This document shows, in pieces, positions 16,311 through 32,511 of a stretch of 64,000 nucleotides of DNA; position 1 is the first letter of the stretch, and every line of letters starts with the position of its first letter. The notes beneath the pieces were generated by a model. It was given only the letters and a program-made list of their open reading frames with translations, did not search any database and was not told where the DNA came from. The stretch is from Escherichia virus TH54. Location of the stretch: the sequence record MT446420.1; one strand, given 5' to 3'. Both the position numbers and the translations under genes were made by a program.

Positions 16311-16586
16311 TTATAATCTTTTAAACTTGAAACAATATATTGCAAATAAATCAGAAAAATGGCTATCAACCCATATTCTTTGCACTGGACTAGTAACAGT
16401 CAGCATATAATGTGCTTTTTGTAAATTTATTCCATTTTTATTCGGACATTCTTTATTAACAGAATGGTACGTGCTTGCTACTATTTCAATTTCCCTTTCA
16501 TATCTCTCGCTATCTGTTTGTGTGGGGATAAATGCAATTCCAGCAATAACAAAAATAGAGATATACGTCCAAATCTTATATATCAT
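16311..16586 (-). CDS. membrane-anchored hypothetical protein, 91 aa
   Basis: N-terminal TM helix. Confidence 0.5.
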   Translation of the reverse strand: MIYKIWTYISIFVIAGIAFIPTQTDSERYEREIEIVASTYHSVNKECPNKNGINLQKAHYMLTVTSPVQRIWVDSHFSDLFAIYCFKFKRL

Positions 16587-16593
16587 AAGGACC

Positions 16594-17166
16594 TCAGCTT
16601 GTCAATTCGAGCCAATGTTTCCTGCATAAAGATACGTACGATTCATTCCCACCGACCAATACTTGCTCGCCGTCCTTTACAGCAGCACCGTCGATTACTC
16701 GAGCGGTCATGGTTGCTTTCCGGCCGCAATGGCAGACGCCCTTTAATTCAACCAGTTTATCCGAAATAGCCAGAAGTCTGGCTGAACCGGGAAATAACTG
16801 ACCCCGAAAATCTGTTCTTAGCCCGTAACACATAACGGGGATATTGTAATTATCAACCACTCGTGCTAACTGGTCAATTTGCTCTGGCAACAAAAATTGA
16901 GCTTCATCGACCAGGACACAATGGATGTCCTTTTGAGACTCGGCCCATTTATAGAATTCAAACAGGTTCATGTCGGCCGTTACCAGGTTTGCTTCCTGGC
17001 TAATACCAATACGTGATTTAATTTCAGATTCCGAGTCCCGATTATCAATAACAGGCTTTAGCAAAAGCACACTCATTCCACGCTCTTTATAGGAATAAGC
17101 GGCAGTCAGCAATGAAGCTGTTTTGCCTGCATTCATTGCTGCGTAATGATAAATTAAACTCGCCAT
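16594..17166 (-). CDS. tk: thymidine kinase
   Basis: Walker A NAGKTASLL; Cys cluster; size as T4 Tk. Confidence 0.95.
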   Translation of the reverse strand: MASLIYHYAAMNAGKTASLLTAAYSYKERGMSVLLLKPVIDNRDSESEIKSRIGISQEANLVTADMNLFEFYKWAESQKDIHCVLVDEAQFLLPEQIDQLARVVDNYNIPVMCYGLRTDFRGQLFPGSARLLAISDKLVELKGVCHCGRKATMTARVIDGAAVKDGEQVLVGGNESYVSLCRKHWLELTS

Positions 17167-17175
17167 ATCACCTTC

Positions 17176-17361
17176 TTAAAGCGTATTCACATAAGCTATT
17201 AATTCGTTTTCTTTCTCATCAAATCGATTAGCAAATTCTTCCAGATGGTCGGCATCTATCGGGCCATATTCATCATAAAAGGCGTTTGCTTCCGTATGCT
17301 CGTCCAAAAGCTCATGGATAAGCTCAAACAATCTACTTTTCTGACTAATACTTAAACTCAT
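17176..17361 (-). CDS. hypothetical acidic protein, 61 aa
   Basis: ORF track. Confidence 0.5.
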   Translation of the reverse strand: MSLSISQKSRLFELIHELLDEHTEANAFYDEYGPIDADHLEEFANRFDEKENELIAYVNTL

Positions 17362-17564
17362 TTCAGTTCACCATATCGTACAAATTCAGGGTGTTCACAA
17401 TCACCAGAATGGAGACCTTCACCTTCATGGTTAGGACATCCTTTATTAGAACAGTACCACCAGTAATCAAATCCACATTCCATTTCATCGTTGCATAAAA
17501 CTGCGATTACTGGCCATTCGCATTTTTCACATTTGGCCGTTTTAAGAATTCGGGCTTGGCTCAT
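17358..17564 (-). CDS. Cys-rich small protein, 68 aa
   Basis: CEKC...CNDEMEC...CSNKGC...CEHP. Confidence 0.55.
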   Translation of the reverse strand: MSQARILKTAKCEKCEWPVIAVLCNDEMECGFDYWWYCSNKGCPNHEGEGLHSGDCEHPEFVRYGELK

Positions 17565-18015
17565 AATCCACCACTATTAAATCAATATCAGGAGTAAACA
17601 TGTCGATTAATTTAGAAACCTTATCCCAATCGCCGCCAGCAATACCACAACCAATACGAGGAATATAAATTACCGGTTTAAACAAAAGGGTTTCTGCCTG
17701 TAGATTTAATTCTATCATACAATTTACTAAAGCGCCATAATCAAGATTAGGGCCCGGTTCATATTGGGTGTACAAATTATAACACATACCAAACCCAGTA
17801 GGCTTATGTTTAAAAACAATAGACATATCACCGAGTTTTTCTCTGGAACCATATTCAGTAGTGGTTTTATCTATTTCTAAAACTTTTGGATAAGCCTTCG
17901 CCAACTGTCCAGCTACGCCAGAACCCATTGTGTGAAAGCAGTTGCAACCATGTGCAATAATATTGCCTTGAAGAAAGAGGGCGACAATATCGCCCTTAAT
18001 ATACTGGGTAATCAT
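17542..18015 (-). CDS. macro-domain (ADP-ribose binding/processing) protein
   Basis: HGCNC...MGSGVAGQL and IPRIGCGIAGGDW motifs. Confidence 0.75.
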   Translation of the reverse strand: MITQYIKGDIVALFLQGNIIAHGCNCFHTMGSGVAGQLAKAYPKVLEIDKTTTEYGSREKLGDMSIVFKHKPTGFGMCYNLYTQYEPGPNLDYGALVNCMIELNLQAETLLFKPVIYIPRIGCGIAGGDWDKVSKLIDMFTPDIDLIVVDYEPSPNS

Positions 18016-18371
18016 TTAGAGTTCAATCCTCTATTATATGAATCCACTAACCTGTCAACCATACTGGTGCAGGCCGCCTTATATTTTGCACTTGAAAGAA
18101 TGCAATCCATTTCAAATAATTTCTTTTCATATTTGTTGGATAATACATTCTTTTTCAAAAGTGTATGTTCAACATCATTTTGACCATCTTTATATGCCGC
18201 GGTGAGCTTGGCGCTGAACTGGATTACACAATCCACATTGCTTGCTGCGCAATAATCTTTAGCCGTCCTCGTTGCATATTCTATGATGCTGTTGTTGTCA
18301 TCGCTCTGTACTGAAGCTATTCCTCCCATGCTGAATACTAACCCTATGGCTAAAGTGATAACTCTTACCAT
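18012..18371 (-). CDS. secreted/periplasmic hypothetical protein, 119 aa
   Basis: N-terminal signal peptide. Confidence 0.6.
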   Translation of the reverse strand: MVRVITLAIGLVFSMGGIASVQSDDNNSIIEYATRTAKDYCAASNVDCVIQFSAKLTAAYKDGQNDVEHTLLKKNVLSNKYEKKLFEMDCILSSAKYKAACTSMVDRLVDSYNRGLNSK

Positions 18372-18373
18372 TT

Positions 18374-18916
18374 TTAATCCACCGTTTTTAATAGGCCTCG
18401 TGATTTTAAGTAGTTAGCTTTTTCTAGGACTTGTGAAGCATACTTATTACCAGCTTTCACATTCCACCCTGCGTTATATGATGATAGTGTTTTCCTTATA
18501 TCCCCCTTATGAATATCCAACCAGTATGAAAGCTCAATGTAAGCCCAGCGTGCACTGTTCTCTCTCTTGCTTATCATCTTGATTATTTCTTTATCTGTCA
18601 TTGTCCACCCAACCTGTTTCACGCGTTCGCGCACGGTTGGAAGATAATTTTGGAATATACCATATGCATGGTGCTTATCTTTATTTAATCCAGTATTAAT
18701 CCCAGCAGAACTCTCCTGCCAGGTTAAACCAGCCATGATATATCCCAAACCATTATGTTGGTGCGGATTTTCTTTGTACTTACCATTTTTCTGGAACTGT
18801 TCTCCAAACGCATAAGCATATTGAAGGTTTTCCATTTGTTCATTACTGAAAGTAGGCTCTACGCTATGGGCAGACATACTAACTGTCAATAGTAAGGTGG
18901 CGATTACTTTTTTCAT
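18374..18916 (-). CDS. secreted protein with weak lytic-transglycosylase-like motifs
   Basis: signal peptide MKKVIATLLLTVSMSAHS; QES...GIFQ...YNAG. Confidence 0.55.
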   Translation of the reverse strand: MKKVIATLLLTVSMSAHSVEPTFSNEQMENLQYAYAFGEQFQKNGKYKENPHQHNGLGYIMAGLTWQESSAGINTGLNKDKHHAYGIFQNYLPTVRERVKQVGWTMTDKEIIKMISKRENSARWAYIELSYWLDIHKGDIRKTLSSYNAGWNVKAGNKYASQVLEKANYLKSRGLLKTVD

Positions 18917-18926
18917 GAATTCCCCA

Positions 18927-19385
18927 TTAGATATAAATCACTTTTGTGCTAATTTTTCCTTCCAGACGATTAGAGTTAACAAACGCCATACGGCAACACA
19001 TGGTTGGAGACTTCCCAGGAATAGCGGGGTTAACTGTCATTCCTAACCATAGGTTCTTGTCCGTGATTTCCAGACGAAGTGGACGGTAGTTCACATTCGG
19101 GTCAATTTGTGCTTCAACTTCCGGGAGTGGTTTCATCTCCAAGAATTCAACGATTTCTTTTACATGTGGTGTGATTTTTCCAAACAAGTCAAAAACATAT
19201 TGTTCATCAATTTCACGCTGGATTGCACGGTCCAATAGGTGTGGACTGTACTTAATGAAGAATGCTTCAAGGCCTGCTTCTTTACAAGCCTTGTTGATAG
19301 CATTATTAATTTTGAGGAACTCCGTTTCAAAAATGCGACGAAGTTTATTGCGGCGAATGTAAACACTTGAATCGATAGTAGTCAT
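18927..19385 (-). CDS. regB: sequence-specific endoribonuclease RegB
   Basis: 152 aa; VYIRRNKLRR...HLLDRAIQREIDE matches remembered T4 RegB. Confidence 0.9.
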   Translation of the reverse strand: MTTIDSSVYIRRNKLRRIFETEFLKINNAINKACKEAGLEAFFIKYSPHLLDRAIQREIDEQYVFDLFGKITPHVKEIVEFLEMKPLPEVEAQIDPNVNYRPLRLEITDKNLWLGMTVNPAIPGKSPTMCCRMAFVNSNRLEGKISTKVIYI

Positions 19386-19441
19386 GATTATCTCCTTTTG
19401 TTTGATGGGATAATCATAACTCATTTCAATCTGCTTGTACA
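19386..19441 (-). promoter_or_regulatory. early promoter-like cassette upstream of regB
   Basis: GTGTACA...conserved leader. Confidence 0.45.
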
Positions 19442-20021
<580 letters not shown>

Positions 20022-20025
<4 letters not shown>

Positions 20026-20255
20026 TTCACTTCCTCGCCAGTTGCGATATCATATTCCACCAAACGAATGCCGTCAGTCCAACCTTGCACGGAGATATAA
20101 GTAGTTGGATAAATCATTTCTTTACCATTCCACTGACCACCGTCCCAGCATTCCAGAAAGTCTTGTTCACCTGGTCCATTAAACCATTCAACAAATCTCT
20201 TCAAAGCTGCATCAGAACCTTCAATTGTCAATTTAGACATATTTTTTCCAGTCAC
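20022..20255 (-). CDS. hypothetical protein, 77 aa
   Basis: ORF track. Confidence 0.5.
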
Positions 20256-20532
20256 TAATTAATCGCACATCCTGGTCATACGTCAGGAGGCTACGAGTTA
20301 TAATACCCTTACATGGTCCAGAAATAAATTCCAGGGTAAAGTAAGGAACCAACTTCATCAAGCGAATACTCGGAGCAGTGCAACGAAATCTGGACCCAAT
20401 AAAAGGTCCAGACAAAAACACATACTCAAAGAAATTTGCTTTATTAAAGATTTCAAAATTCTTTACGAAATCTTCTGACCTAACCTTTGGAATAAAATAG
20501 ATTTGGTCAAAAAGCTCTTCATGGGTCATCAT
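20233..20532 (-). CDS. hypothetical protein, 99 aa
   Basis: ORF track. Confidence 0.5.
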   Translation of the reverse strand: MMTHEELFDQIYFIPKVRSEDFVKNFEIFNKANFFEYVFLSGPFIGSRFRCTAPSIRLMKLVPYFTLEFISGPCKGIITRSLLTYDQDVRLISDWKKYV

Positions 20533-21074
20533 TGCATTCCTATCACAAAGAACAGTGGACGTGTGGTTTGATTGGTTTCTTCACATGATGCACGACAGCA
20601 ATGTTGCACCACCTTTATATGGGCATCGTAAATTTTATCCATATCCGGTGTTTTAATAGGTTCATCAATTATATACAGAATACGTGAAAGTGATAATCCA
20701 CGGAATTTGCATGCAGTATTACCAATAAAACTACGAACAGAATCAGTGTACAAACGATACTTAATACTTTCTGTATGGTTATTAAAATATTCCTTTCTGA
20801 TTGCAGTAGCCGAAACATTAGCATATGCCGTGTTATTAGACAAAATAACAATAGAACCGCCATCAGCTAACCATTCCGTAGCAAAAATGGATACCGCTTT
20901 AGTTTTACCGGATTGGCGCCCGCCATCAAGTTTTAAGGTGCAGCATTCTTTAAACAGGGTTTGTGAATCGGGTACATAAAACCCACTATTACAAATGTGT
21001 TCTACTCTAGCATCAGAATGGTTTGCAAAAGCATTCATCAGGGATAGATAACTACCGGTTAAAAACGTTTTCAT
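20529..21074 (-). CDS. P-loop NTPase-like protein
   Basis: Walker A GGRQSGKT. Confidence 0.6.
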   Translation of the reverse strand: MKTFLTGSYLSLMNAFANHSDARVEHICNSGFYVPDSQTLFKECCTLKLDGGRQSGKTKAVSIFATEWLADGGSIVILSNNTAYANVSATAIRKEYFNNHTESIKYRLYTDSVRSFIGNTACKFRGLSLSRILYIIDEPIKTPDMDKIYDAHIKVVQHCCRASCEETNQTTRPLFFVIGMQ

Positions 21075-21238
21075 AATTGTCTCTTTTTAAGTTGTGGGCC
21101 GTTCCTTGGCACATTAATTCATCCATGTATCCGAATGTAAACCCCTTACCGCACTCGGGCTCGACCTTATTACAGGTAGGGAAAGGTCCATCACTCAGAG
21201 GACGCGACGTTCATGAGGAGAGGGTCGGTTTGCCTTTA

Positions 21239-21538
21239 TTAAAAAGAACCAGAGCCTTTAATTGTGTTCTGGCGACCTTTATTTTCTAATTCAGAATGGT
21301 CGATTTCGTATGCTTGTGCTACACCAAAGGCCTTTTTAACTTTAGCTAAAGAACCTTTAGATGTAACAATATTAAAAGTATTACCTTTAGTAAAATCAAC
21401 CAAATCCACTTGTACACCCTGTTTACCGAGGCTTGCTACAATAGCATCAACATATTGTTGGTCTAAATTACCCTGAACCCCAATTTGAAATGCTTTAGGA
21501 GCTTTGACTTCAGTAATAAATTCTTGATAAGTTTTCAT
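21239..21538 (-). CDS. internal-protein-like, capsid targeting sequence MKTYQEFITE
   Basis: T4 IP-type CTS at N-terminus. Confidence 0.8.
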   Translation of the reverse strand: MKTYQEFITEVKAPKAFQIGVQGNLDQQYVDAIVASLGKQGVQVDLVDFTKGNTFNIVTSKGSLAKVKKAFGVAQAYEIDHSELENKGRQNTIKGSGSF

Positions 21539-21594
21539 TTATTCGCTCCAAGTTGATAGGATAATTATACACTATCCCATCATAAAGTAAACAG
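21539..21594 (-). promoter_or_regulatory. early promoter-like cassette (GTTTAC, TATAAT inside palindrome)
   Basis: GTTTAC...GGGATAGTG-TATAAT-TATCCC. Confidence 0.5.
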
Positions 21595-21858
21595 TTATGC
21601 TTTACCGCCAGAAACAATACCAAAGGTCTCAAAGTCCCATTCAATATCGTCAACATCAACTTTCTTACCAGCAACCACGAATGCGATTTCGCGACGTTTT
21701 GCATAGGTGACAATTTCTTTACCATCACCACCAAAGAAAGAATAACCATTGCGCTTCATGGTGCCAAAGTCTTCAGCATCACCGGCGAAGGCGCGGACTT
21801 TAAAAGCACCGGTAGGAGCTTTAGCAGATTCAGTAATAAATTCTTGATAAGTTTTCAT
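21595..21858 (-). CDS. internal-protein-like, CTS MKTYQEFITE
   Basis: CTS; paralog of 34932..35231. Confidence 0.8.
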   Translation of the reverse strand: MKTYQEFITESAKAPTGAFKVRAFAGDAEDFGTMKRNGYSFFGGDGKEIVTYAKRREIAFVVAGKKVDVDDIEWDFETFGIVSGGKA

Positions 21859-21871
21859 AATGTCTCTTTAA

Positions 21872-22186
21872 TTACTCTTTAGGGAAATCACGCAAAAATG
21901 CATCATAAAGTTTATTACCAATGCGACGGAATGCTTTTGCCGCATGAACGTTATCCGGATTTGCAATTTTAATCTGCATTACATGACTACCAGCCCATGA
22001 TTTGGCTTCATCATAATAGCCTTTAATTTCTTTAATAGTCTTACGTTTTCCACCAGGGCCATCAACAGTAATTTTCCACGAACCCGTGCTCGTTTCACTT
22101 GGTGGGGTTAATTGTTCAATCCAGACATAACCACCTTCAACACGTTTTTGGGTAGATTCAGTAATAAATTCTTGATAAGTTTTCAT
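21872..22186 (-). CDS. internal-protein-like, CTS MKTYQEFITE (start trimmed)
   Basis: CTS. Confidence 0.75.
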   Translation of the reverse strand: MKTYQEFITESTQKRVEGGYVWIEQLTPPSETSTGSWKITVDGPGGKRKTIKEIKGYYDEAKSWAGSHVMQIKIANPDNVHAAKAFRRIGNKLYDAFLRDFPKE

Positions 22187-22234
22187 TTTATATTCCATTG
22201 TTTGGTTGATAAAATCATTATACAACCTTTTTAG

Positions 22235-22651
22235 TTAAGCGTACACAGCTTTCCCATAGTATTTGTACCAGGTAGGCTTTTGAGAAATTTTCTCATTCAG
22301 TCTGGCTTGACTGATTTCAATTGACCAGATTGATGGTTGATAATCATTTTTCCATTCATCAGGAATATCACTTAAATCTTGGGTAGAAATATCTTTTATG
22401 TTAAACCCTCGCTTTAAACATTCTGCAATAAGTTCTTGATGACGGTTTTTAAGGAACAAAAGTTTATCATAAAAGAAGGTAACATGACCAGTCCCTAAAA
22501 GAAAAGATGATGGGATTTTAAAGTCAGAAACCTTTTTACCATTTTGCACATGCTTACGAACAGCACCAAACACGCGAGGAAGTTCACGATATTCAGCCAT
22601 AAGATGTTGGTCAGCGAGTTCAGATACCAGGGTTAAATTAATGCGAGTCAT
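22235..22651 (-). CDS. denV: endonuclease V (pyrimidine dimer DNA glycosylase)
   Basis: 138 aa, near-identical to remembered T4 DenV. Confidence 0.95.
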
Positions 22652-22706
22652 GTTTGTTCTCCGTAGTTGATAGGGTCATTATAACCCTATCATTTGGAGA
22701 TGTACA
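22652..22706 (-). promoter_or_regulatory. early promoter-like cassette
   Basis: GTGTACA...ATAGGGT-TATAAT-GACCCTAT. Confidence 0.5.
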
Positions 22707-23195
22707 CTAATATGCGTCAAAAGTTCCGGTACGGAACGTTTCTATAACTCGTTTGGCTCGGTTCGGAGTCTGGACTTTATACCATCTCGAGTCGGCCAGT
22801 TCCTTAGCGGCGGCTTCCCACGATTTGGCCTTCAACAATCGCATACCCTTAGGAAAACCAGCTACCCCTGCAACACCCATCTGGAATACCATATTAATGA
22901 GTGCACAACGACGAACTTCATCCAGTACATCATAAACAGGTTTTAAGACAGGATGCCTCAAGATTCCGGCTTTAGCTTTTTCGACCGAACGGTTAAACAA
23001 TGTTTCAGCTTCGTGCTGGGTTATGCGACCATTGCAAACGCGACCCATGAGCTTATCGAGTTCGGCACGAGCAACATCTTTTGATGGGTTCTTAGTTATC
23101 AGTTGCCCGATACCAATGGTCCAATAGCCTTCAGTATCTTTATACAAATCCAACTTACAACCTTCATCTATGCGTAACATTTCGAATATATTCAT
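22707..23195 (-). CDS. e: endolysin (T4 lysozyme)
   Basis: [12 protein letters not shown]...[11 protein letters not shown] matches remembered T4 lysozyme. Confidence 0.96.
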
Positions 23196-23222
23196 AATAC
23201 CCCCTTTATATAGGGGTATTTA

Positions 23223-23681
23223 TTATCCGAAAATTTGAGTCATTACCTTGTACATCGATTTACCCATCACATACTGCCATTGACTCGGTTTAATCAAAGC
23301 AAATGCATCGAACTCTGGGACTGTACTACCATCCGGGAAGGTATGATAGGCAGAGCATTTACTATGTCTGAACTGCTCATGCTCGACCGGAACCGTGTAC
23401 AGAAACAGGTGAAGATTTTTGTTATCTGAATAGCGGAATTCACCCAGGTCCTTTAAGAATGCTGGGTCATATTGGGTAAACCCGGTTTCTTCTTCGGTTT
23501 CACGGATAGCAGCTTCAATCGGGGATTCATCAGCTTCAACATGACCCTTAGGGATGTCCCATTTGTGTGCAGGCATACCTGGTTTACGAGAACCGGTCAC
23601 ACGACCCATGAATAACTCTTTATCTTCAGTCATGAAAATAATGCCAGCAGATAATTCTTTCACCTTGTTTTTCTTACTCAT
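23223..23681 (-). CDS. nudE: Nudix hydrolase
   Basis: Nudix box GHVEADESPIEAAIRETEEETG. Confidence 0.85.
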   Translation of the reverse strand: MSKKNKVKELSAGIIFMTEDKELFMGRVTGSRKPGMPAHKWDIPKGHVEADESPIEAAIRETEEETGFTQYDPAFLKDLGEFRYSDNKNLHLFLYTVPVEHEQFRHSKCSAYHTFPDGSTVPEFDAFALIKPSQWQYVMGKSMYKVMTQIFG

Positions 23682-23910
23682 CGTCACGTTCCCAGGATTG
23701 GTTAAAAATATCACTCATTAAAAATTCAAGTCTATTTTCCAATGAAGGGGATTCACTATCAGAAATTTGAATTCTGTATTCAGAAATAGGGCGGAACATA
23801 TCCAAGTCAGTTTCTAAATCATCTTTGATTTTCTCTTCTGATGTACCTGTATCATAGGAATACAGATAAGAATCACACGACTCAGATTTAATATAAATTG
23901 CAATACTCAT
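23674..23910 (-). CDS. hypothetical acidic protein, 78 aa
   Basis: ORF track. Confidence 0.5.
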   Translation of the reverse strand: MSIAIYIKSESCDSYLYSYDTGTSEEKIKDDLETDLDMFRPISEYRIQISDSESPSLENRLEFLMSDIFNQSWERDDE

Positions 23911-24494
23911 TTACGGCATTCCTCAATAAAAGAGTTCAATGTATTTTTCTTGGCGATATCGTCGTATACCTTTTTAACTTTAGAAATACGAAAAGGTACT
24001 TCAATAACCATAGTCCATAAAAGTGATGCAATAAGTCCAACAGCAGCAGAAGAAATGCACGCGCCCATTACAGCTACAGGTGCTTCATTTTTACCTGTCA
24101 GGAAAAACCACAGGATTGGTAAAAATAAGATTCCAGCCCATGCATAAAACCTGGAACAAATTAACTTATCAAATTCATCTTTCCAGGTACGAAATCCATA
24201 TTTCTTGCTATAAGAAATTAATGGGTCTGGTGTCTGTTCTTTGAGTGGTTCTGGTTGATGCCCATTAATGATGTATCCCATTTTATATTCCTTAATTAAA
24301 AGCTCTTTCATATGACGATTGCATCGCGACCAATCAACATTTTCAACCTTGATTCCTTCATCACCATCATCAAGGTTCGCCCAATATTTTTTGGCAATCA
24401 TAAATTCGTCTCTTGATACAATTATACCTGTATTTTCTGGGCGACGGATGAAGTTTACATCAACACCCATACACCCAGGTTCATAAAGGGCCAT
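23907..24494 (-). CDS. membrane protein with C-terminal FIEECRK tail
   Basis: TM helices; tail shared with 27832..29060 proteins. Confidence 0.6.
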   Translation of the reverse strand: MALYEPGCMGVDVNFIRRPENTGIIVSRDEFMIAKKYWANLDDGDEGIKVENVDWSRCNRHMKELLIKEYKMGYIINGHQPEPLKEQTPDPLISYSKKYGFRTWKDEFDKLICSRFYAWAGILFLPILWFFLTGKNEAPVAVMGACISSAAVGLIASLLWTMVIEVPFRISKVKKVYDDIAKKNTLNSFIEECRK

Positions 24495-25183
24495 TACCAG
24501 CCCTCCATGGGGAATTCCAGATATACTTGAGCATTAACGCGGATTTCATTGGTAACTTTATTAACACGGTCAGTTTTACGAGATACGCGACCAAACCAGC
24601 GCCAACCGTTACTAACTGTTTTTGTTCCAGTATGCCAGGTCTGCCAGTTGAATTCACATAATGTGCGGTCAGGAGCTTCTTGAACTAAAAGTTCACCCGC
24701 CTTGATTTTTTCCAGAACTTCCTGGTGCCACTGGCGATAGATAAGTTCGCCATCAGGAATCTGACTGAATTCTGCAGTTCCAAGAGCAAAATTAGTAGGG
24801 CAAACAGAAGCGTTAACCAGACCCAGGATGTGTTCAGAATGGTAACGAGGGTTATCATAATCAGGTTGTCCTGCTGTAATAAAATGTTGTCCTGCTGGAA
24901 TATCTGGTCGCGGTACGTCATCATGGTGATATCCAGGGATAGCAGGATACCAACCAGGCATTAACATGTGTACACGGGAATCAAATACAATATCAGGGCC
25001 ACATTGCCAATCTTCAGGCAGGTTTTCAATAAAGCTACGAGTAATAGGACCGCCATGCTTATGCGCAAATTCTGGATAGCAGTTAAAGAACATGGGCTCA
25101 TTTTTAATCATATCATTACTGATATCTTGAGCAAATTGACCAACTTCACGCATTTGACTATTAAAAGTTTTTGGACTGTTCAT
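24494..25183 (-). CDS. hypothetical protein, 229 aa
   Basis: ORF track. Confidence 0.65.
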   Translation of the reverse strand: MNSPKTFNSQMREVGQFAQDISNDMIKNEPMFFNCYPEFAHKHGGPITRSFIENLPEDWQCGPDIVFDSRVHMLMPGWYPAIPGYHHDDVPRPDIPAGQHFITAGQPDYDNPRYHSEHILGLVNASVCPTNFALGTAEFSQIPDGELIYRQWHQEVLEKIKAGELLVQEAPDRTLCEFNWQTWHTGTKTVSNGWRWFGRVSRKTDRVNKVTNEIRVNAQVYLEFPMEGW

Positions 25184-25242
25184 AATATTTTCCTCATTGA
25201 TTGTGGGACCATTGTGTCATGGTCCCACTTGGATGTACACAA

Positions 25243-26202
25243 TTATTTTTCGAAAGGACGAATTAAATGTTGGTTAGCCTTAAAGCGTTTAACATAGTCT
25301 TCATGACCCAGTGTGTTATACATATTAACCACGTCCTGATAATGTTCCCAGGCATACTCACGGAACCATCCAGAAGTAATGGAGGTGCAGACTTTTTCCA
25401 GCGCAATATGGAAGCTCATGGATGGAGAGATATTGAACTCATTAGGAACCTGCGAACGTTCCAGAGCGAGCACACATGCTTCTTCATAAACCCCTGCCAG
25501 TTTAATAACATCAGGCAGTGCTTCAAATTTTTCACGTGAGGTCATGACTTCTGAATCATCCTTCATATAGAACTTATATGCAGGCTTATCAGCAAGCGCC
25601 ACAGCCTCGTGGATGGAGTCATGGTCAAGGGTATAGATTGTATCATTAAAGAAAGTTTTCTTGCCCACATCTAGTTTAGGGTGACTGTATGACAGTGTTT
25701 CTGCCTGACGCTGCAGCATGATTTTCTGCAGTTCATCATTAAGAACAACACCCTTATTGCGAAGATAATTAATATGACTCATGGTCTTCAGGAAGAATGG
25801 GTTGTTCTTCAGGTAACGATGAGACAATTTAATCGCCAGACAAATATCAGGAGTCGCCCAATAGAAACCTGTAAGACGGTCTTTCTTAATATGATTTTCA
25901 GCGTATTTCAAGAGACGATAACTTGAGGTGAAATCTTCGTCTTGAAGCTCACCAGTAATTTCTCGTACGTTAGTCAGGGCACGGACAATATAAGCTTCAA
26001 AATAGGTTTCTTTGCCATTGTACATACATTTAAAAGCTTGGACATCAGGGTTATCCACAGGAACATGAGCACCGAACATACGTGCTTTAAAGTGGTTCCA
26101 AGAACCCTGGTCAGCGATAAAGTCCCAATCAGAGTTTTCAATTTTCTGACTTTCAATCAGACCAGCGTTATGTAATGCACGAGAACCAATAACTAACATC
26201 AT
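25243..26202 (-). CDS. hypothetical protein, about 320 aa (start trimmed, GAGG RBS)
   Basis: ORF track 25243..26265. Confidence 0.65.
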   Translation of the reverse strand: MMLVIGSRALHNAGLIESQKIENSDWDFIADQGSWNHFKARMFGAHVPVDNPDVQAFKCMYNGKETYFEAYIVRALTNVREITGELQDEDFTSSYRLLKYAENHIKKDRLTGFYWATPDICLAIKLSHRYLKNNPFFLKTMSHINYLRNKGVVLNDELQKIMLQRQAETLSYSHPKLDVGKKTFFNDTIYTLDHDSIHEAVALADKPAYKFYMKDDSEVMTSREKFEALPDVIKLAGVYEEACVLALERSQVPNEFNISPSMSFHIALEKVCTSITSGWFREYAWEHYQDVVNMYNTLGHEDYVKRFKANQHLIRPFEK

Positions 26203-26221
26203 AATATTTTCCTCAGTAAAC

Positions 26222-26461
26222 TTAAATTTCAGCAACGTAATCGTTATGCAATTCCCACATATCATCAGAATTATTCTTAATGATAGGAATTATCTCATTA
26301 GAGATTTCTTCTGCATAAGGGTCATTGATACAGTGAGCATCTTCAAAACGAACACCATAATCAGACTTCTTATAAGAGAAGCCATAAATCTTTTTAAACT
26401 TGGCACGAGTAATGCGTACCGGTTCATTAGACTTATCGGACATCGGAGCGTAATACCACAT
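26222..26461 (-). CDS. hypothetical protein, 79 aa
   Basis: ORF track. Confidence 0.5.
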   Translation of the reverse strand: MWYYAPMSDKSNEPVRITRAKFKKIYGFSYKKSDYGVRFEDAHCINDPYAEEISNEIIPIIKNNSDDMWELHNDYVAEI

Positions 26462-26573
26462 ATATTCTCCTCATATTGTGTAAAGTAATAGTATCGCAGT
26501 TTTTTGGAGTTGTATACTGCTTCTGCAATATTCTAAAAATAATTTATCCTCCTATCACATCCTTGTGATAATT

Positions 26574-26808
26574 TTAGCAGCTACTCGGATACCAGATTTT
26601 ACCATCGGCACGAGCAACGAAGGTACGACCAGCTTCTTCACCATAACAAGAGCTGTTCAACCAGTCTTCAAGACGGACTTCGCCGTCATAATCATCAAGC
26701 TCAACACCAAAATCTTGAGCAGAAGCCATATCTTTTACTTTCTTATACAGTGCAGCCAGTTCAAGGGCAGCTTTTTCTAATTCAGCATGTTCAACAGCAG
26801 TAGTCATT
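26574..26808 (-). CDS. small protein, W-x-SS-C tail family member A (ends KIWYPSSC)
   Basis: tandem paralog; start trimmed. Confidence 0.55.
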
Positions 26809-26817
26809 TTTATTTCC

Positions 26818-27045
26818 TTAGCAAGACATAGAGGAGTTAAACCAGAAACCTTTACCATCTGGGATACCATAATCACCGCGAATCCAGTCATACTCTTCGT
26901 ATTCTGGACAACCCGCAGGAATATATCGTTGAAGACTGTCAGCATACACATGAAAGTATTCACCAGTTTTATCGGCCAGTTGTTCACCTTCACAGATTAG
27001 TGCACGGATTTGGTCTTCAATTTCTTTAACAGTTTTAGCAGTCAT
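26818..27045 (-). CDS. small protein, family member B (ends FWFNSSMSC)
   Basis: tandem paralog. Confidence 0.6.
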   Translation of the reverse strand: MTAKTVKEIEDQIRALICEGEQLADKTGEYFHVYADSLQRYIPAGCPEYEEYDWIRGDYGIPDGKGFWFNSSMSC

Positions 27046-27054
27046 TTTATTTCC

Positions 27055-27252
27055 TTAGCATTCGTAAGAGGAGGACACCCAGGAGCCACCCGTAATTGTA
27101 ATACAGCCATTGTAAATCGTGATATGACGGTCCAGATGGTTTTCACCTTCGATATAGATGTCGGCTTCTTCACGTTCTTCTTTACAAATCTGGATAACGT
27201 TTTCAATAGCTGCCGCGGCAGTACGGATTGCACAATCTAATTCACGAGACAT
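27055..27252 (-). CDS. small protein, family member C (ends GSWVSSSYEC)
   Basis: tandem paralog. Confidence 0.6.
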   Translation of the reverse strand: MSRELDCAIRTAAAAIENVIQICKEEREEADIYIEGENHLDRHITIYNGCITITGGSWVSSSYEC

Positions 27253-27261
27253 AATAATTCC

Positions 27262-27543
27262 TTAACATTCAACAGAAGAGGACACCCAACCACCATTTTC
27301 CAGGTCAGTTGTATAGTCATGAGTATTAACAATAGCCCATTCAGGATGACCATGTTCTTCCCAATGAGCAAGGTCGGCTTTCAAGGCGCCAGGAGAATAA
27401 TAGTCACCGCCCATACCGCGAGCAGGGTATATATTAAAATGAGTCTCATATTTGTCTGCAATTTCCTCGGCACGACGAATAGCTTTATGGATATCATTTA
27501 CTGCGGCCAGAAGCTCTGGTTGGTTATGGTTATCATTCATCAT
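27262..27543 (-). CDS. small protein, family member D (ends GGWVSSSVEC)
   Basis: tandem paralog; start trimmed. Confidence 0.6.
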   Translation of the reverse strand: MMNDNHNQPELLAAVNDIHKAIRRAEEIADKYETHFNIYPARGMGGDYYSPGALKADLAHWEEHGHPEWAIVNTHDYTTDLENGGWVSSSVEC

Positions 27544-27544
27544 A

Positions 27545-27835
27545 TTAGCACACCTCAGAAGAGGAAACCCAGGCACCAACAGTAACAATGCCGTTTTCAA
27601 CTTGCCCGCCGTTGTTTTCAATATGGTGGGCGAACCATTCGGAACATTCATAACCGACTGGGTGATATGTACGGCCGGTGCCGTAATCGCCAGTGCTGAA
27701 TTCGATACCATATTCATCTGCGATTTCTTCACAGTGTTTTTCAATTTCAGAGGTCTTATTTAGAAGAGAATAGATAGCTTTTTCTGCAGATTTCTCATCA
27801 TAATACTTGGGGATAGCAATTTCAATTTTATTCAT
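27545..27835 (-). CDS. small protein, family member E (ends GAWVSSSEVC)
   Basis: tandem paralog. Confidence 0.6.
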   Translation of the reverse strand: MNKIEIAIPKYYDEKSAEKAIYSLLNKTSEIEKHCEEIADEYGIEFSTGDYGTGRTYHPVGYECSEWFAHHIENNGGQVENGIVTVGAWVSSSEVC

Positions 27836-28185
27836 GATTTACATTCCTTAATAAAGGTTTCAAGGTCATTACGTTTTGTTTTGTCTAGAAACTTATTATA
27901 CTCAGCCATTGCCGAAGCATATCTCTTACGACTAGGAGCATTCACGGCGTTTGTGTGACAAATATCATACACAACCGGGATAAAATAAGCCACAATAGCC
28001 GGAGCGATTATCATAAAGAAACCCATCTCAATAGGCATGACTCCCTCGATTGCAGCCATAACCGTGGTCATTACCAGACCAACCAAACCACCAAGCATGG
28101 CGGTGACAATCCCTAATAATAAATTGCCACCAATATCATATTCAGCCAATTGATAAACATGTGAGGCAAGACTAGGCCGTTCCAT
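27832..28185 (-). CDS. membrane protein with C-terminal FIKECKS tail
   Basis: TM helices; start trimmed. Confidence 0.55.
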   Translation of the reverse strand: MERPSLASHVYQLAEYDIGGNLLLGIVTAMLGGLVGLVMTTVMAAIEGVMPIEMGFFMIIAPAIVAYFIPVVYDICHTNAVNAPSRKRYASAMAEYNKFLDKTKRNDLETFIKECKS

Positions 28186-28531
28186 TACGAACCTCCTTAA
28201 TAAATTCTTCGGCACATTTAATTTTGTGCTCTTCTTGTAGGGAAACACATTTTTGTTCCCACGCTTTAACTCGCCCGCGATAACCTTTATTCATATGATT
28301 TTGATGCCACACGTTTATCAATAACATGCTCAGGACTGTAATAAAAGGTGCTGCAATTACTAGCGTCCAGGCGACTCCAACACTAATGATATTCATATCT
28401 CCACAAAGCACCATCATTATAACCCCAACGATGCACATGGACAGAGCTCCAAATGGAGGCATAAGGTCTTTATCAATCTTGTCTGCGTATACAAATTTTT
28501 CTGGTTTACTTGGCAGATATAACGTTCGCAT
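28172..28531 (-). CDS. membrane protein with C-terminal FIKEVRNG tail
   Basis: TM helices; start trimmed. Confidence 0.55.
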   Translation of the reverse strand: MRTLYLPSKPEKFVYADKIDKDLMPPFGALSMCIVGVIMMVLCGDMNIISVGVAWTLVIAAPFITVLSMLLINVWHQNHMNKGYRGRVKAWEQKCVSLQEEHKIKCAEEFIKEVRNGTA

Positions 28532-29060
28532 TTTGAACCTCTTTAGCATATTCACGACATTCAGCAATAAAACGATTAAGCTTACGTTTCCGTTTACGAC
28601 ATTCTAATGTGTACTCAGCCGCCAAATCAAAAAGCTCATCTTTATCATAATTTTTAATATCAGTATAAGTTGGGCGGCGGTCAACCATTCCAAAGTGGTC
28701 ACCATTTTCCAACATCAAATAACACACCAAATGGTCATCATCGTCCGCATTAATAAGCTGCTTATAATCACTTGGTTCATTTAACGCATACACAGAATAA
28801 CTCAGTCCAGCGAATTCCACTCGTTGAATACCCAGATTTACATCAATAATTTCCAAGGCATCTGCGAAAGAAAGGTCTTCAGCTAAAGCAAAAATAAAAG
28901 GCAATTTGGTAGTATCACCGCGACTTGTTGTTCTTCTTAAGAAATCATTGGAATAGCCCAGGTCACCACGGATTCTATAAAGAACTGTATTAGTTTCAGT
29001 GGCAAGACCGCTACCACCAAACCAGTCTACATTTGATATAAGGTCAGTGTATAAGCTCAT
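28506..29060 (-). CDS. hypothetical protein with C-terminal FIAECRE motif
   Basis: ORF track, start trimmed. Confidence 0.55.
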   Translation of the reverse strand: MSLYTDLISNVDWFGGSGLATETNTVLYRIRGDLGYSNDFLRRTTSRGDTTKLPFIFALAEDLSFADALEIIDVNLGIQRVEFAGLSYSVYALNEPSDYKQLINADDDDHLVCYLMLENGDHFGMVDRRPTYTDIKNYDKDELFDLAAEYTLECRKRKRKLNRFIAECREYAKEVQNANVISAK

Positions 29061-29104
29061 AATTTTCTCCTCTCCCAATTAGGGGGCAAAGCCCCCATTT
29101 TATC

Positions 29105-29698
29105 TTACTTAAGCGAATTGATATATTCTTCAATGTCAGCGGATGTGGTATCCACACCAACCTGTGGGCCTTTGAAGGTTTCAACACGCATCAGAGTGTC
29201 TTCAATATCAATCTTAGTCAATGCAGCGATTTCAACAACATCATCTGCAGTCGCAATACCTAGGGCAGATACTTTACGGGTTTCGCGGATGTATTCCAGT
29301 TTAACAGCTAGTTCCTGACGAGAGTCATCTAGCTCTTTAACTTTCAATTTAATTTCATTACGCATTTCAACATAATCATCTGCCTTCTTACGAAGTTGTT
29401 TAGCAGTGCGACGATACAGGAGACCCAGTTTAGCATGGACCTGGACATCTGCACCATCAGCAATCAGTTTGCGGATTTCACGCTCTTTTGAAGCGGCGAG
29501 TTGGTCTTTTTCATTCGCTAACTCGCGGATGCGTTTTTCTTCATTAACAGACTTAACGTGGGCAGTCTGGAGCTCAGTAATCTTGTCAATCAGGGTAGAA
29601 GCCGCTTGAGTATATTGGTCTTCAATAGACAGGTTTTTTGCCATTGCAGTACCCAGTTTGGAGCGGATGAATTCAACAAGTTTCTTTAAAGTATTCAT
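29105..29698 (-). CDS. coiled-coil protein, 197 aa
   Basis: long heptad-rich helices. Confidence 0.6.
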
Positions 29699-29773
29699 GG
29701 TATTTCCTTCAGTTGGTTAATGTTTTATTATCCAGGGAACATACTATCATGTTCCCAGAGGTTTGTAAACATT

Positions 29774-30172
29774 TTATTTCATTTTTGCGAGGCAGATTTC
29801 ATTGGCTTCCCATTGAGCTTGCTTAATAATAGCTTTGGATACAGGAACCTTTTGACCATAAGTTTTTGACGTTGAGAGAACAATATATTTGTTTGCCTCA
29901 TTATGCCAACCCCATGATTTTTCGCCATGAGTACCTTTAACAACAGCTGACACCTCAACAGAACAACCATCAGCGCCAATCTTGGTATCAACAATCCATT
30001 CATTTCGCTTAATTGCTGCTTCCAATGTTGCTGCTTCCGCCATCCAGTGCGTTTCAGGGTCTATTTGTTCAATCTCACGAGTTAACGCAACTCCCAGGTC
30101 TTTTGCATATTTTTGTTGTTCAGGAGTTAATGAATCATATAACTTCTTCATTTCTTTATCTTCAATATTCAT
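29774..30172 (-). CDS. hypothetical protein, about 132 aa
   Basis: ORF track trimmed; GGA RBS. Confidence 0.55.
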   Translation of the reverse strand: MNIEDKEMKKLYDSLTPEQQKYAKDLGVALTREIEQIDPETHWMAEAATLEAAIKRNEWIVDTKIGADGCSVEVSAVVKGTHGEKSWGWHNEANKYIVLSTSKTYGQKVPVSKAIIKQAQWEANEICLAKMK

Positions 30173-30206
30173 AATATTTTCCTCAAGGGGCTTTCGCCCC
30201 AATCAT

Positions 30207-30512
30207 TTAGATTTTGTTTTCCTGTACACCATAATAAAGCTCATCAGACACAATATCCAGGATGCGGCGAACATATTCATCATGGTATTGACAGTCAAAA
30301 TCAAATGCAACAGTAGTTTCCGCTTCACGAGTGAATTTAACTTGCACATTCAGGTGATTAACAACGTTAGTTAATTTATCAGTAAAGAACTCTTTTGCTA
30401 CCGCCTGTTGGACTTGCACTTTGAACTTGGTGTTACGAATCATATTTTCAGCAGATGCGAAATTACCAGTTTTATCAAAGTCAACAAGCGCCAGGTTGAT
30501 GATGAATTTCAT
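30207..30512 (-). CDS. hypothetical protein, 101 aa
   Basis: conserved leader upstream. Confidence 0.6.
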   Translation of the reverse strand: MKFIINLALVDFDKTGNFASAENMIRNTKFKVQVQQAVAKEFFTDKLTNVVNHLNVQVKFTREAETTVAFDFDCQYHDEYVRRILDIVSDELYYGVQENKI

Positions 30513-30570
30513 TTTATTCTCCAGTGTTTTATTTGGTAACTCAGTATGGAATCATTATGCCTTAAAGCAG
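30513..30570 (-). promoter_or_regulatory. early promoter/leader cassette
   Basis: conserved element. Confidence 0.5.
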
Positions 30571-30594
30571 GGGGCTTGTATACCCCCTTTTTAA

Positions 30595-31026
30595 TTAAAT
30601 TTCAAATTCTTTGCGGAAGTTGGAAGCATAAGACTGAACTGATGCTTTGTTGAATCCAAACTCACGCACAATCATATCAATAACAGCTCTACGAGCAGCA
30701 CCATTAGACATATTGACAGTTTTGAACATATCATAGCATAAATCTTTGTTGCTCATGCCGGAGCGTTTAGGTGCCTTACGTTCAGCTTTAGGAGTAGGTT
30801 TAACTTCTGGTTTAACCTGTCCATCATTCAGACCTTTAAAAATTTTACCTGCCAGCGTTGCCAGTTTAGCAGCTTCGCCACGAGTGATACCAAATACTGC
30901 CGGGTTAAATGAAATACCTTCAGCTGTCAGACGTTTGAAGAACATACGTGCTGCGGATTGTGCTTCAGCTTCAGAAGAGTTGTTTAATGCCAGTTTAATG
31001 TACTTAACCAGTTTTGAAGTTTTCAT
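30595..31026 (-). CDS. hypothetical protein, 143 aa, C-terminal domain shared with 31479..31904
   Basis: shared ...AARRA.ID..V......QSYASNFRK. Confidence 0.65.
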   Translation of the reverse strand: MKTSKLVKYIKLALNNSSEAEAQSAARMFFKRLTAEGISFNPAVFGITRGEAAKLATLAGKIFKGLNDGQVKPEVKPTPKAERKAPKRSGMSNKDLCYDMFKTVNMSNGAARRAVIDMIVREFGFNKASVQSYASNFRKEFEI

Positions 31027-31099
31027 TTTATTATCCCGTTTGTTTATTTGTTAACTCAGTATGGAATCATTATGTCTTAGTTAAATTCCAAAGTACACA
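31027..31099 (-). promoter_or_regulatory. early promoter/leader cassette
   Basis: conserved element. Confidence 0.5.
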
Positions 31100-31396
31100 T
31101 TAATTTTCAGAAGTTGGGAAATAAACTTCAAAGTCATACATGTTTACTACCGCAGACGCGATTGCCTGGTACTGCATACCTAAGAAAGTTTTCTTATTCT
31201 TGCGCCACAAGTTAACCATTTCTGTTTTGATGCATGCCAGGGAATAGTTGGATGCAGGATACTGTTTGATGATTGCAACAACTTCTTCAGAAGCAGTTTC
31301 ACACAATTCATTCAGTTGAGCTTCAATTTTAGCAGAAATGATTGCTTTGTTTTCTTCTTGAGCTTGGGTAGCGTGCCATGCAGGTGCGTTAAACAT
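31100..31396 (-). CDS. hypothetical protein, 98 aa
   Basis: conserved leader upstream. Confidence 0.6.
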   Translation of the reverse strand: MFNAPAWHATQAQEENKAIISAKIEAQLNELCETASEEVVAIIKQYPASNYSLACIKTEMVNLWRKNKKTFLGMQYQAIASAVVNMYDFEVYFPTSEN

Positions 31397-31478
31397 TTTA
31401 TTCTCCAGTGTTTTATTTGTTAACTCAGTATGGGATAATTATACAATATCCCACCTGGAAGTAAAACACTTTTCTCAA
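31397..31478 (-). promoter_or_regulatory. early promoter/leader cassette (TATAAT in GGGATA/TATCCC palindrome)
   Basis: conserved element. Confidence 0.5.
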
Positions 31479-31904
31479 TTATTTTTGAGCTTTGCGGAAG
31501 TTGGAAGCATAAGACTGAACAACAGTCTTTTTGATATCATGGGTGGTAACCAGAACATCAATCAGAGCGCGTCGAGCTGCATTATCATTCATATCAATTT
31601 CTGCAAATGCCTGGAAGCAAATGTCACGGGCGTTACCCGATTTGGACCGGATTTTTTCTTCTTTAACTTCTTCAATTGGGAATTCAATCATTTCAGCTTG
31701 GATTAATTCAATGATAGATTCTTTTGACTGTTTGGTGTTTACCTTCAGTTCAGAATTAAGGGACTTGGCGATGGCAACAATCTGGGTTGAAGTCAGATGA
31801 ATAAGTGCATCTTCACGAATGCAGATTTCACATACTTCGTCAGCAACCATTTTGTTGGTGATGCGGGTAACAGAGAATGCAGAGGTCAGGGTCAGAAAGT
31901 TCAT
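31479..31904 (-). CDS. hypothetical protein, about 141 aa, paralog of 30595..31026
   Basis: start trimmed to ATG after conserved leader. Confidence 0.65.
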   Translation of the reverse strand: MNFLTLTSAFSVTRITNKMVADEVCEICIREDALIHLTSTQIVAIAKSLNSELKVNTKQSKESIIELIQAEMIEFPIEEVKEEKIRSKSGNARDICFQAFAEIDMNDNAARRALIDVLVTTHDIKKTVVQSYASNFRKAQK

Positions 31905-31985
31905 TTTATTTCTCCAAAGTTTTGTTTGATTCAGTGTGTAACTCAGTATGGAATCATTATGCACCCGGTCAATTCGGATGTACAC
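31905..31985 (-). promoter_or_regulatory. early promoter/leader cassette
   Basis: conserved element. Confidence 0.5.
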
Positions 31986-32032
31986 TACTTTTTGAAGAAA
32001 ATTTCAAATTTATTCGGGGTATAAAAAAGCCC

Positions 32033-32060
32033 CAACCTTTCGGGAGGGGCTATACCTTGT
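32033..32060 (-). terminator. rho-independent terminator (GC hairpin plus T6 on minus strand)
   Basis: GCCCC...GGGGC followed by TTTTTT. Confidence 0.65.
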
Positions 32061-32088
32061 CGGGGTTCCACCTGCAAGGCAAGTGTTC

Positions 32089-32472
32089 TTATCCGCGAGC
32101 GAATGCCATTGCAGCGCGTTCGTTGGCACGGTCGGTGATGTTCAAGAATTTATCACGAGCGATTTCGATTGGAGCGCCAACCCAGTCAGCAGCACCATTA
32201 CCCGGAGACTGTTTAGGACGGACCATATAAGTCGAAACTTTGGAACCGGCTAGTTTGGCACCTGGTGCCGCGGCATTTTTAACGTCTTTGGCTTTGATGC
32301 CAAATCCAGTTACGATACCCCAAGAAACGCCATTAACTGGTTTCTTGAACATAACACGGTCACCAATTGAAACACCAGCTTTTTCTGGAGCCACTAAAGA
32401 AAATTTACCAGCTTCAGTCAGTACGGATTCGGTGATGGTATTGCGATTTAAAAATTCTGCATATGTAAGCAT
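32089..32472 (-). CDS. hypothetical protein, 127 aa, possibly late-expressed
   Basis: TATAAATA 31 nt upstream. Confidence 0.65.
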   Translation of the reverse strand: MLTYAEFLNRNTITESVLTEAGKFSLVAPEKAGVSIGDRVMFKKPVNGVSWGIVTGFGIKAKDVKNAAAPGAKLAGSKVSTYMVRPKQSPGNGAADWVGAPIEIARDKFLNITDRANERAAMAFARG

Positions 32473-32503
32473 TTTGTTTTTCCATTATTAGGGTTGTTGT
32501 TAA

Positions 32504-32511
32504 TATTTATA
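32504..32511 (-). promoter_or_regulatory. late promoter TATAAATA
   Basis: exact T4 late -10 consensus, appropriate spacing. Confidence 0.5.

Follow-up and report, generated by a model that had tools for sequence, protein, structure and literature searches.

Several small proteins encoded upstream of the lysozyme gene of a T4-like phage end in nearly the same few residues, and the locus raises the question of whether this shared C-terminal tail is a genuine element and what it might be for. The stretch analysed here (the window, to which all coordinates refer) comprises 64,000 nucleotides (nt) of Escherichia virus TH54 (MT446420.1), which by DNA identity (90-94% to the genomes of TH57, SP18, VR25 and P896) is a T4-like coliphage of the genus Gaprivervirus; its minus strand carries T4-type denV, e (lysozyme) and nudE. 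Four genes are of concern, all on the minus strand, with starts fixed by Shine-Dalgarno sites and orthologues: gene A (27832-28185, 117 amino acids (aa), tail ...LETFIKECKS), gene B (28172-28531, 119 aa, tail ...EEFIKEVRNGTA), gene C (28506-29060, 184 aa, tail ...NRFIAECREYAKEVQNANVISAK) and gene D (23907-24494, 195 aa, tail ...LNSFIEECRK). GC content near these genes is ~0.39-0.41. The original prediction, made from the same DNA, had quoted the tails of all four proteins, and each is present exactly as given. We find that the tail is carried by versions of the T4 proteins e.2 to e.5, both membrane-bound and soluble, and suggest with moderate confidence that it is a common docking helix on the cytoplasmic side of the inner membrane. 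As far as we found in the literature, the shared tail has not been described previously.

The tail motif and its carriers

The motif at the ends of A to D can be written as hydrophobic(-7)-[E/N](-6)-x-[F/W](-4)-[I/V](-3)-x-x-C(0)-[R/K](+1). Its core is encoded on the minus strand at 27838-27855 in gene A (F111-I-K-E-C-K116), 28187-28204 in gene B (F110-I-K-E-V-R115), 28554-28571 in gene C (F164-I-A-E-C-R169) and 23913-23930 in gene D (F189-I-E-E-C-R194). The form proposed at the outset, FIxEC(K/R), thus fits A, C and D but not B, which has Val for Cys; the motif also extends further than had been stated, to the hydrophobic residue at -7 and the E/N at -6, and the Glu at its fourth position is not invariant across genera. 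In a profile of 61 unique tails, position -7 is hydrophobic in 59 and position -6 is E, N or D in 57, the remaining positions being F/W at -4, I/V at -3, C at 0 and R/K at +1. With the spacing i, i+3, i+4, i+7, the hydrophobic residues and the Cys share one face of a helix, and the tail is predicted to form a short amphipathic helix. The pattern [F/W]-[I/V]-x-x-C-[R/K] is present in A, C and D; the e.4 type, to which B belongs, has V (in B itself), S or I at the Cys position. Gene B also contains an internal W-x-x-x-C stretch (RVKAWEQKCVS), and MAFFT places the internal W-x-x-x-C of e.4 against the e.2 and e.3 tails, a weak resemblance.

A chance origin of the shared tail is ruled out by residue shuffles and a strand control. 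The pattern F[IV].[ED][CV][KR] occurs within the last 30 residues of 4 of the 112 gene-like open reading frames (ORFs) in the window, whereas 2000 residue shuffles averaged 0.02 such ORFs, with one at most; this pattern was defined after the data had been seen, and independent genomes confirm it. A relaxed search of the full 64 kb with [FW][IV]..C[RK] returned A, C and D only, bar one 46-codon non-gene ORF. Across 13 annotated loci and 17 from IMG/VR, C-terminal [FW][IV]..C[RK] is found in 1-5 gene-strand ORFs per locus, the exceptions being Serratia phage 4S (none) and one spurious 51-aa ORF, and on the opposite strand of the same loci no ORF C-terminus carries it. The 17 IMG/VR loci, which were found by an e.2 profile, have 2-3 Cys-type tails apiece, all of them on the gene strand.

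Family searches and gene order indicate that A, B and D are the window's versions of T4 e.3, e.4 and e.2, respectively, and that C is e.5 by position, standing between e.6 and e.4; A, B and D, and probably C, are orthologues of known, already catalogued but uncharacterised T4 genes. Gene A matches PHROG 2330 (E = 1.2e-45), B PHROG 2604 (E = 4.7e-44), C PHROG 8788 (E = 1.5e-112) and D PHROG 2203 (E = 9.8e-67), and GenBank annotates relatives of A as e.3 (VR7, RZ) and those of B and D as e.4 and e.2 (SP18). Relatives of A and D are present in 306 and 673 phage records, respectively, and those of C in 82 only, all from Gaprivervirus and Dhakavirus. The T4 proteins e.2, e.3 and e.4 share with the window proteins the same PHROGs, the location between e.6 and nudE, the hairpin of two transmembrane (TM) segments followed by a basic helix, and the C-terminal motif; they differ in that A and B are only ~15-25% identical to their T4 counterparts and D has a 31-residue N-terminal extension relative to T4 e.2. 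None of A to D is recognised by NCBIfam, PADLOC or the Pfam set used, which was without PF26873, PF26896 and PF26876; precomputed Pfam families in a large protein collection do include these three, corresponding to the e.4, e.2 and e.5 types, respectively. Some public records (H17, H27, H64, H71, H147, P0029 and P0031) name such ORFs 'sulfurtransferase', 'holin', 'VirB3' or 'ubiquitinyl hydrolase', labels that have no support in Pfam, NCBIfam or PHROGs, and literature searches on the T4 gene names e.2-e.6 found no functional data.

The motif ranges over Tequatro-, Mosig-, Dhaka-, Gapriver-, Karam- and Kanagawavirus and one Aeromonas phage, always on the gene strand and confined to C-termini. 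T4 itself has the tails EFVIDCRKIK (e.3), KFVKESRCKSQS (e.4, containing KFVKESRC) and KFVKECREYVKAITIPSK (e.5, containing KFVKECREY), and the e.2 of RB7 ends in NFITECRKLK. Mosigvirus has five carriers, including an extra, minimal two-TM hairpin of 101 aa ending NLENFIKECRGK; this hairpin (L004 6508-6813, L007 5089-5394, L009 5008-5313) lies just upstream of a 228-aa gene and e.2 and is absent from the window. Karamvirus KaAlpha has five Cys-type carriers (a 217-aa protein at the e.5 position, a 113-aa soluble protein and three hairpins) together with a Cys-less e.4-type tail (NFIQGIRG), and Kanagawavirus has four Cys-type carriers and one e.4-type tail (LFIKNVRRK). The small soluble carriers of Karam- and Kanagawavirus are 92-113 aa long (NFIRMCRK, SFIQMCRG; L010 6581-6922, L013 7104-7382, and L028-L030 near 7020-7110) and show weak mutual similarity (E = 7e-4). 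In Aeromonas phage 31 the single carrier is a 263-aa protein encoded after e.6, with the tail LFVDYCRR. A profile search of 1.84 billion representatives returned 24 proteins, each of them of the T4-type e.2, e.3 or e.4 kind, with annotated distant relatives absent; a single-sequence homologue search with gene A likewise found close relatives only. The 24 include diverse e.2-type proteins ending in FIKGCRK or WIKGCRK (seen in metagenomic relatives), FIKDCRK or FIKMCRN. In the e.2 family, invariant residues occur both in the N-terminal domain (W38, D42, G47, W55) and in the tail (I190, C193, R194).

In T4 (L003, NC_000866, 3492-3961, minus strand), e.2 lacks, relative to that of RB7, 1 nt of an A-run and has an extra 1 nt ~85 nt further on, owing to which the annotated protein stops at 102 aa; in the original frame, the DNA encoding the tail (NFITECRKLK), which overlaps the start of nudE, is intact. 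These frameshifts represent either a pseudogene of the laboratory strain or old sequencing errors.

Hydropathy analysis gives A, B and D two hydrophobic segments of ~20 residues each (residues 22-42 and 54-74 in A, 26-45 and 53-74 in B) and gene C no hydrophobic or TM segment. The loops between the segments of A, B and D comprise 5-11 residues with 0-1 Lys or Arg, and the C-terminal regions 32-45 residues with 8-9 (43 aa with nine in A). By the positive-inside rule, this distribution predicts that all three are inner-membrane hairpins with both termini in the cytoplasm (N-in/C-in) and hence with cytoplasmic tails. The suggestion that two to three of the proteins are membrane proteins with a tail in the cytoplasm accordingly agrees with the predicted topology, three of the four being predicted membrane proteins. 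In each of the three hairpins, the second TM helix is predicted to run on into a basic cytoplasmic helix of ~30-45 residues. Gene D comprises a conserved N-terminal cytoplasmic domain (W38, D42, G47, W55, C58), the two-TM hairpin and the tail. Its AlphaFold2 model (mean predicted local distance difference test score, pLDDT, of 68) has a small N-terminal domain at 33-75, a helix at 105-132, and the second TM segment and tail as one unbroken helix (140-194, pLDDT ~80). Helix geometry would put the motif ~30 residues, or ~45 Å, below the membrane. A fold search of the D model against the PDB found no match at E = 0.001 or better (best E = 0.25), and one against BFVD found e.2 relatives only.

The membrane proteins had been regarded as otherwise different from one another, a view at odds with their single architecture, their PHROG cross-matches and their T4 e.2, e.3 and e.4 counterparts. 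They align end to end in MAFFT, with an additional semi-conserved Tyr or His ~16 residues before the Phe. Gene A cross-matches PHROG 2203, the family of D (E = 7e-4), and gene B cross-matches PHROG 2330, the family of A (E = 4e-3), in both cases over the second TM segment and the tail. Profile-profile comparisons (hhalign) align mostly the tails (11-17 columns, E = 1e-4 to 8e-7), extending to 36 columns for e.3 versus e.4. A protein that combines PF26873 with PF26896 is an e.4-e.2 chimera. Overall, these alignments suggest that the hairpin bodies of A, B and D are likely homologous (paralogous).

Between the soluble and the membrane carriers, the motif is the only clear similarity. Gene C resembles T4 e.5 in its position directly after e.6, its overlap with the e.4 start and its extended tail F[IV]xECREY[AV]K, and differs from it in that BLAST similarity is confined to the tail. 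An hhalign comparison of C with T4 e.5 gives a weak collinear alignment of the bodies (P = 69%), tblastn with C found no match in Tequatrovirus, and C-type proteins have no precomputed PF26876 match. The 217-aa protein of KaAlpha was read by eye as bridging C and e.5 (GGKFIFSFICDS versus GKKYFFTLIVDS). Gene C is probably a strongly diverged e.5; alternatively, it is a replacement that kept the tail.

Selection on the tail and its possible roles

Codon usage at the motif indicates that it is maintained by selection at the amino-acid level, across several genera and protein bodies of at least three kinds. The Phe is encoded by TTT in 26 tails and TTC in eight, the Cys by TGT in 20 and TGC in 14, and the Arg by all six codons (CGT 11, AGA 10, AGG 5, CGA 4, CGC 2, CGG 1). 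The invariant residues have therefore been kept through synonymous changes, as expected of selection on the protein.

We consider it reasonably plausible that the tail is a shared helix for protein-protein interaction, or docking, on the cytoplasmic side of the inner membrane. Its carriers might assemble with one another through their tails, the soluble e.5-type protein joining the membrane hairpins, or each carrier might dock on the same phage or host partner. The presence of one Cys-Arg tail on membrane and soluble proteins suggests that the genes act together or on one target. As e.2-e.5 belong to the many conserved T-even genes without an assigned function, the tail offers an experimental handle on them, with no bearing on a long-standing open question.

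A number of observations weigh against a docking role. The model of gene D shows no partner for the tail, and its fold searches were uninformative; and the AlphaFold2 model of gene C, built on 37 sequences, was unusable (pLDDT 41). The Cys is missing at the motif position in B and in all e.4 orthologues, and is therefore not essential for every member. The Serratia phage 4S locus has e.6 and the neighbouring array of WVSSS-C genes, which encode small paralogous proteins, and no tail carrier. Homology of the hairpin bodies is itself weakly based, on cross-matches at E = 7e-4 and 4e-3 and on hhalign alignments that cover mostly the tails. Finally, conservation of the x-E residues could derive in part from overlapping Shine-Dalgarno sites (AAGGAA/AAGGAG).

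A more specific proposal, possible but doubtful in our judgement, is that the Phe-Ile/Val-x-x-Cys-Arg helix is a phage address tag that delivers early proteins to one hub at the inner membrane. If so, the hub would be a host machine or a phage protein and its cargo the hairpins, the e.5-type protein and the small soluble proteins, and e.2-e.5 would form a modular effector system in which recombination at junctions of tag and ribosome-binding site exchanges the members.

The overlap of the tails with signals of the next gene raises an alternative that we regard as unlikely, namely that the shared tail is a by-product of dual coding, in which the initiation region of the next gene is read in frame and such junctions have been spread by recombination. 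In A, B and D the K/E-E codons do double as the Shine-Dalgarno site of the next gene, with AAGGAA, AAGGAGG and GAGGAA standing 5-9 nt before its start. In gene A, AAGGAA serves the first WVSSS-C gene, whose ATG overlaps the A stop (ATGA); in gene B, AAGGAGGT serves gene A, whose start ATG is at 28185-28183; and in gene D, GAGGAA serves a 78-aa gene that starts at an ATGA overlap (23910). Nearly all tail genes in the surveyed loci overlap or abut the next gene, the last 15 codons of A are nucleotide-identical to those of Dhakavirus WG01, where the proteins are only 47% identical overall, and a gene insertion or deletion relative to Dhakavirus is bounded exactly by a 13-nt repeat (described below). 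Residues after the motif Arg are shaped by overlap with the next gene. Dual coding as the sole cause is, however, at odds with the many synonymous codons at the invariant residues, including both CGN and AGR for Arg, and with a Shine-Dalgarno site whose codon position varies from gene to gene (K-E in A, C-R-K in T4 e.3 and RB7 e.2, R-G in the 101-aa gene). In gene C the motif lies ~20 nt upstream of the gene B Shine-Dalgarno site and not on it, and in the orthologues of WG01 and IME540 gene B starts 28 nt after the Cys codon of C. The motif is retained where the next start lies 28-71 nt downstream, as in C, the KaAlpha 113-aa protein and the Aeromonas 263-aa protein, and whichever gene follows, be it e.2, a WVSSS gene, nudE, the 78-aa gene or the 228-aa gene. 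Other overlapping pairs in the operon, such as those of the WVSSS genes, lack it.

A chemical rather than a packing role for the Cys-Arg appears improbable. The invariant Cys-Arg would here be the reactive centre, with thiols bridging tails through a metal or forming a redox or persulfide site. Within the tail of the e.2 family only Cys and Arg are scored as fully invariant, the Kanagawavirus tails CRNGRRS and CRNGRN resemble a rhodanese active-site loop, and several GenBank records label e.3 or e.4 'sulfurtransferase'. Against this, Pfam and NCBIfam detect no rhodanese or other enzyme domain in A, B, T4 e.3 or T4-type e.4, the motif ends a predicted long helix and does not lie in an alpha/beta fold, the e.4 type has V, S or I for the Cys, and the Cys lies on the hydrophobic face of the helix, consistent with a role in packing.

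The WVSSS-C array, exclusion and lysis

The tail-bearing genes had been proposed as a second diversified family beside the WVSSS-C array, and this is borne out; the further idea that they are superinfection-exclusion or immunity-type proteins forming a functional pair with the array is one to which we give a low probability. In its favour, the hairpins are predicted to be small, early, N-in/C-in inner-membrane proteins, and small size, early expression and membrane location are features of T4 Imm and P22 SieB. In five genera (Gapriver-, Dhaka-, Mosig-, Karam- and Kanagawavirus) e.3 or an e.4-type gene runs straight into the array through an ATGA overlap, and small soluble tail genes stand among the WVSSS genes of Karam- and Kanagawavirus, in Kanagawavirus between WVSSS-C genes. 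Co-occurrence fails, however, in both directions: T4, RB7 and three IMG/VR Tequatrovirus loci have e.5-e.4-e.3-e.2 and, within the ~8-20 kb covered for each, no WVSSS-like ORF, and the WVSSS-C family has 466 phage records that take in phages of Aeromonas, Klebsiella, Enterobacter, Serratia and Pseudomonas as well as Phapecoctavirus, many of them without a detected tail family, as at the Serratia phage 4S locus. A Pfam match of gene A to SieB is non-significant (E = 0.2, 11.7 bits against a cut-off of 26), its weak alignment spanning the second TM segment and tail with no shared motif known, and PADLOC found nothing. At the loci covered, T4 and RB7 lack the array and 4S lacks the tails; the two families occupy a common plastic region and are not an obligate pair. 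In the window the array is located at 26818-27835, and the family to which it belongs is far more widespread than that of the tails.

A role of the hairpins as holin- or viroporin-like pores, with class II topology, a regulatory charged tail and a function in lysis near e, we consider highly improbable. Class II holins have two TM segments in an N-in/C-in arrangement, matching the predicted hairpins with their strongly basic C-terminal regions; the lysozyme gene follows the cluster 0.7-6 kb downstream; and one GenBank record names a gene of the region 'holin'. However, Pfam and PHROGs give no holin match, 3-6 paralogues per genome together with soluble carriers would be unexpected, T-even phages already have the t holin, and the gene strand has no late-promoter consensus (TATAAATA) from 16308 to 32504. 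Given the lack of this consensus, the A-D cluster is presumably transcribed before replication; the equivalent region of T4 is subject to early and middle transcription. A to D form a run of overlapping genes and, in view of these overlaps, are probably translationally coupled. A promoter and terminator scan of the region gave the same site counts as shuffled sequence, with no excess.

Gene turnover and neighbouring features

Comparison with WG01 identifies gene B as a clean extra segment of ~345 nt, e.4 being present in Gaprivervirus and absent in Dhakavirus (WG01, L005; JS98-type locus, L016). The C/B junction reads GCTAAA-GAGGTTCAAAATG-CGAACG and the B/A junction ATTAAG-GAGGTTCGTAATG-GAACGGCCTAGT, and the single junction of the JS98-type locus, GCTAAA-GAGGTTCAAAATG-GAACGGCCTAGT, is composed of the left half of C/B and the right half of B/A. 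The 13-nt repeats GAGGTTCAAAATG and GAGGTTCGTAATG match (consensus GAGGTTC(A/G)(A/T)AATG), and from the composition of the JS98-type junction it follows that the e.4 insertion or deletion is bounded by a 13-nt direct repeat. This repeat comprises the Shine-Dalgarno site, the spacer and the ATG of the following gene. The DNA encoding the tails has a second, separate role, holding the ribosome-binding site and start of the next gene and providing, through the junction repeats, sites of gene gain and loss. The e.4 example shows a way for overlapping, probably coupled genes to enter or leave a plastic region while those on either side stay undisturbed. Within the 3' part of e.3, the nucleotide identity of the window to WG01 jumps from ~50% to ~85%, a further trace of recombination.

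Two published reports describe PeSL regulatory cassettes through which the modules of T4-type phages are shuffled (PMC2839356, PMC4122927). On that description, the 13-nt repeat resembles PeSLs as a short repeated regulatory sequence at gene boundaries that serves as an indel end-point. PeSLs are composite promoter-terminator motifs (PMC4122927), a description from which the present case differs in that the repeat lies inside coding sequence and the genes overlap; the C/B, B/A, A/array and D/78-aa junctions have no spacer for the intergenic early promoter and stem-loop that characterise a PeSL.

Other recombinant forms of the tail genes were observed. One protein of 106 aa (P0069) joins an e.4 N-terminus to an e.2 C-terminus, another of 69 aa (P0170) is an e.4 that has lost its hairpin by internal deletion, and the e.2 of IME540 (L008, 6501-7094) is a mosaic of a Dhakavirus-like N-terminal half and a Tequatrovirus-like C-terminal half.

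Gene order along the coding strand of the window is e.6, C, B, A ... D, the 78-aa gene, nudE, e and denV, and the placement of the cluster from e.6 to nudE, as well as its order, agrees with T4, RB7, SP18, RZ, WG01 and Mosigvirus. T4 and RB7 have e.6, e.5, e.4, e.3, e.2 and nudE with no genes interposed, whereas in the window e.2 stands ~3.3 kb from e.3, the intervening DNA holding the WVSSS-C array, a DUF7275/DUF7277 gene and a gene for a 229-aa protein. The DUF7275/DUF7277 gene (25243-26205), between the array and e.2, encodes a protein of 320-340 aa with Pfam matches to DUF7277 (E = 4e-26) and DUF7275 (E = 2e-75), and is found at the same location in Mosig-, Dhaka-, Karam- and Kanagawavirus, Serratia phage 4S and Aeromonas phage 31.

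The invariable head of the cluster is e.6 (29105-29698, minus strand, 197 aa), so named in the records of close relatives. Its product is mostly helical and highly conserved, with 34-75% identity across seven aligned phages, Aeromonas phage 31 and Serratia phage 4S among them; the gene is followed by a GC-rich hairpin (29082-29096). A likeness by eye to PspA/Vipp1, which would have made e.6 a candidate partner, was not supported: Pfam and PDB sequence searches gave no match, a profile of seven e.6 proteins reached only E = 2.6-5 against Vipp1, and hhalign against Escherichia coli PspA gave a probability of 0.2. The F-I-x-E of the tail also recalls the capsid-targeting MKTYQEFIxE, through a pattern match at residue 7 of the ORF at 21239-21538, and this likeness was judged probably coincidental, since the Glu of the tail is not conserved in other genera. 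The ORF at 21239-21538 has the N-terminal sequence MKTYQEFI(T/A)E, of the type seen in the capsid-targeting sequences of T4 internal proteins, and the same sequence begins at residue 14 of the listed ORF at 21872-22225, suggesting a later start for that gene.

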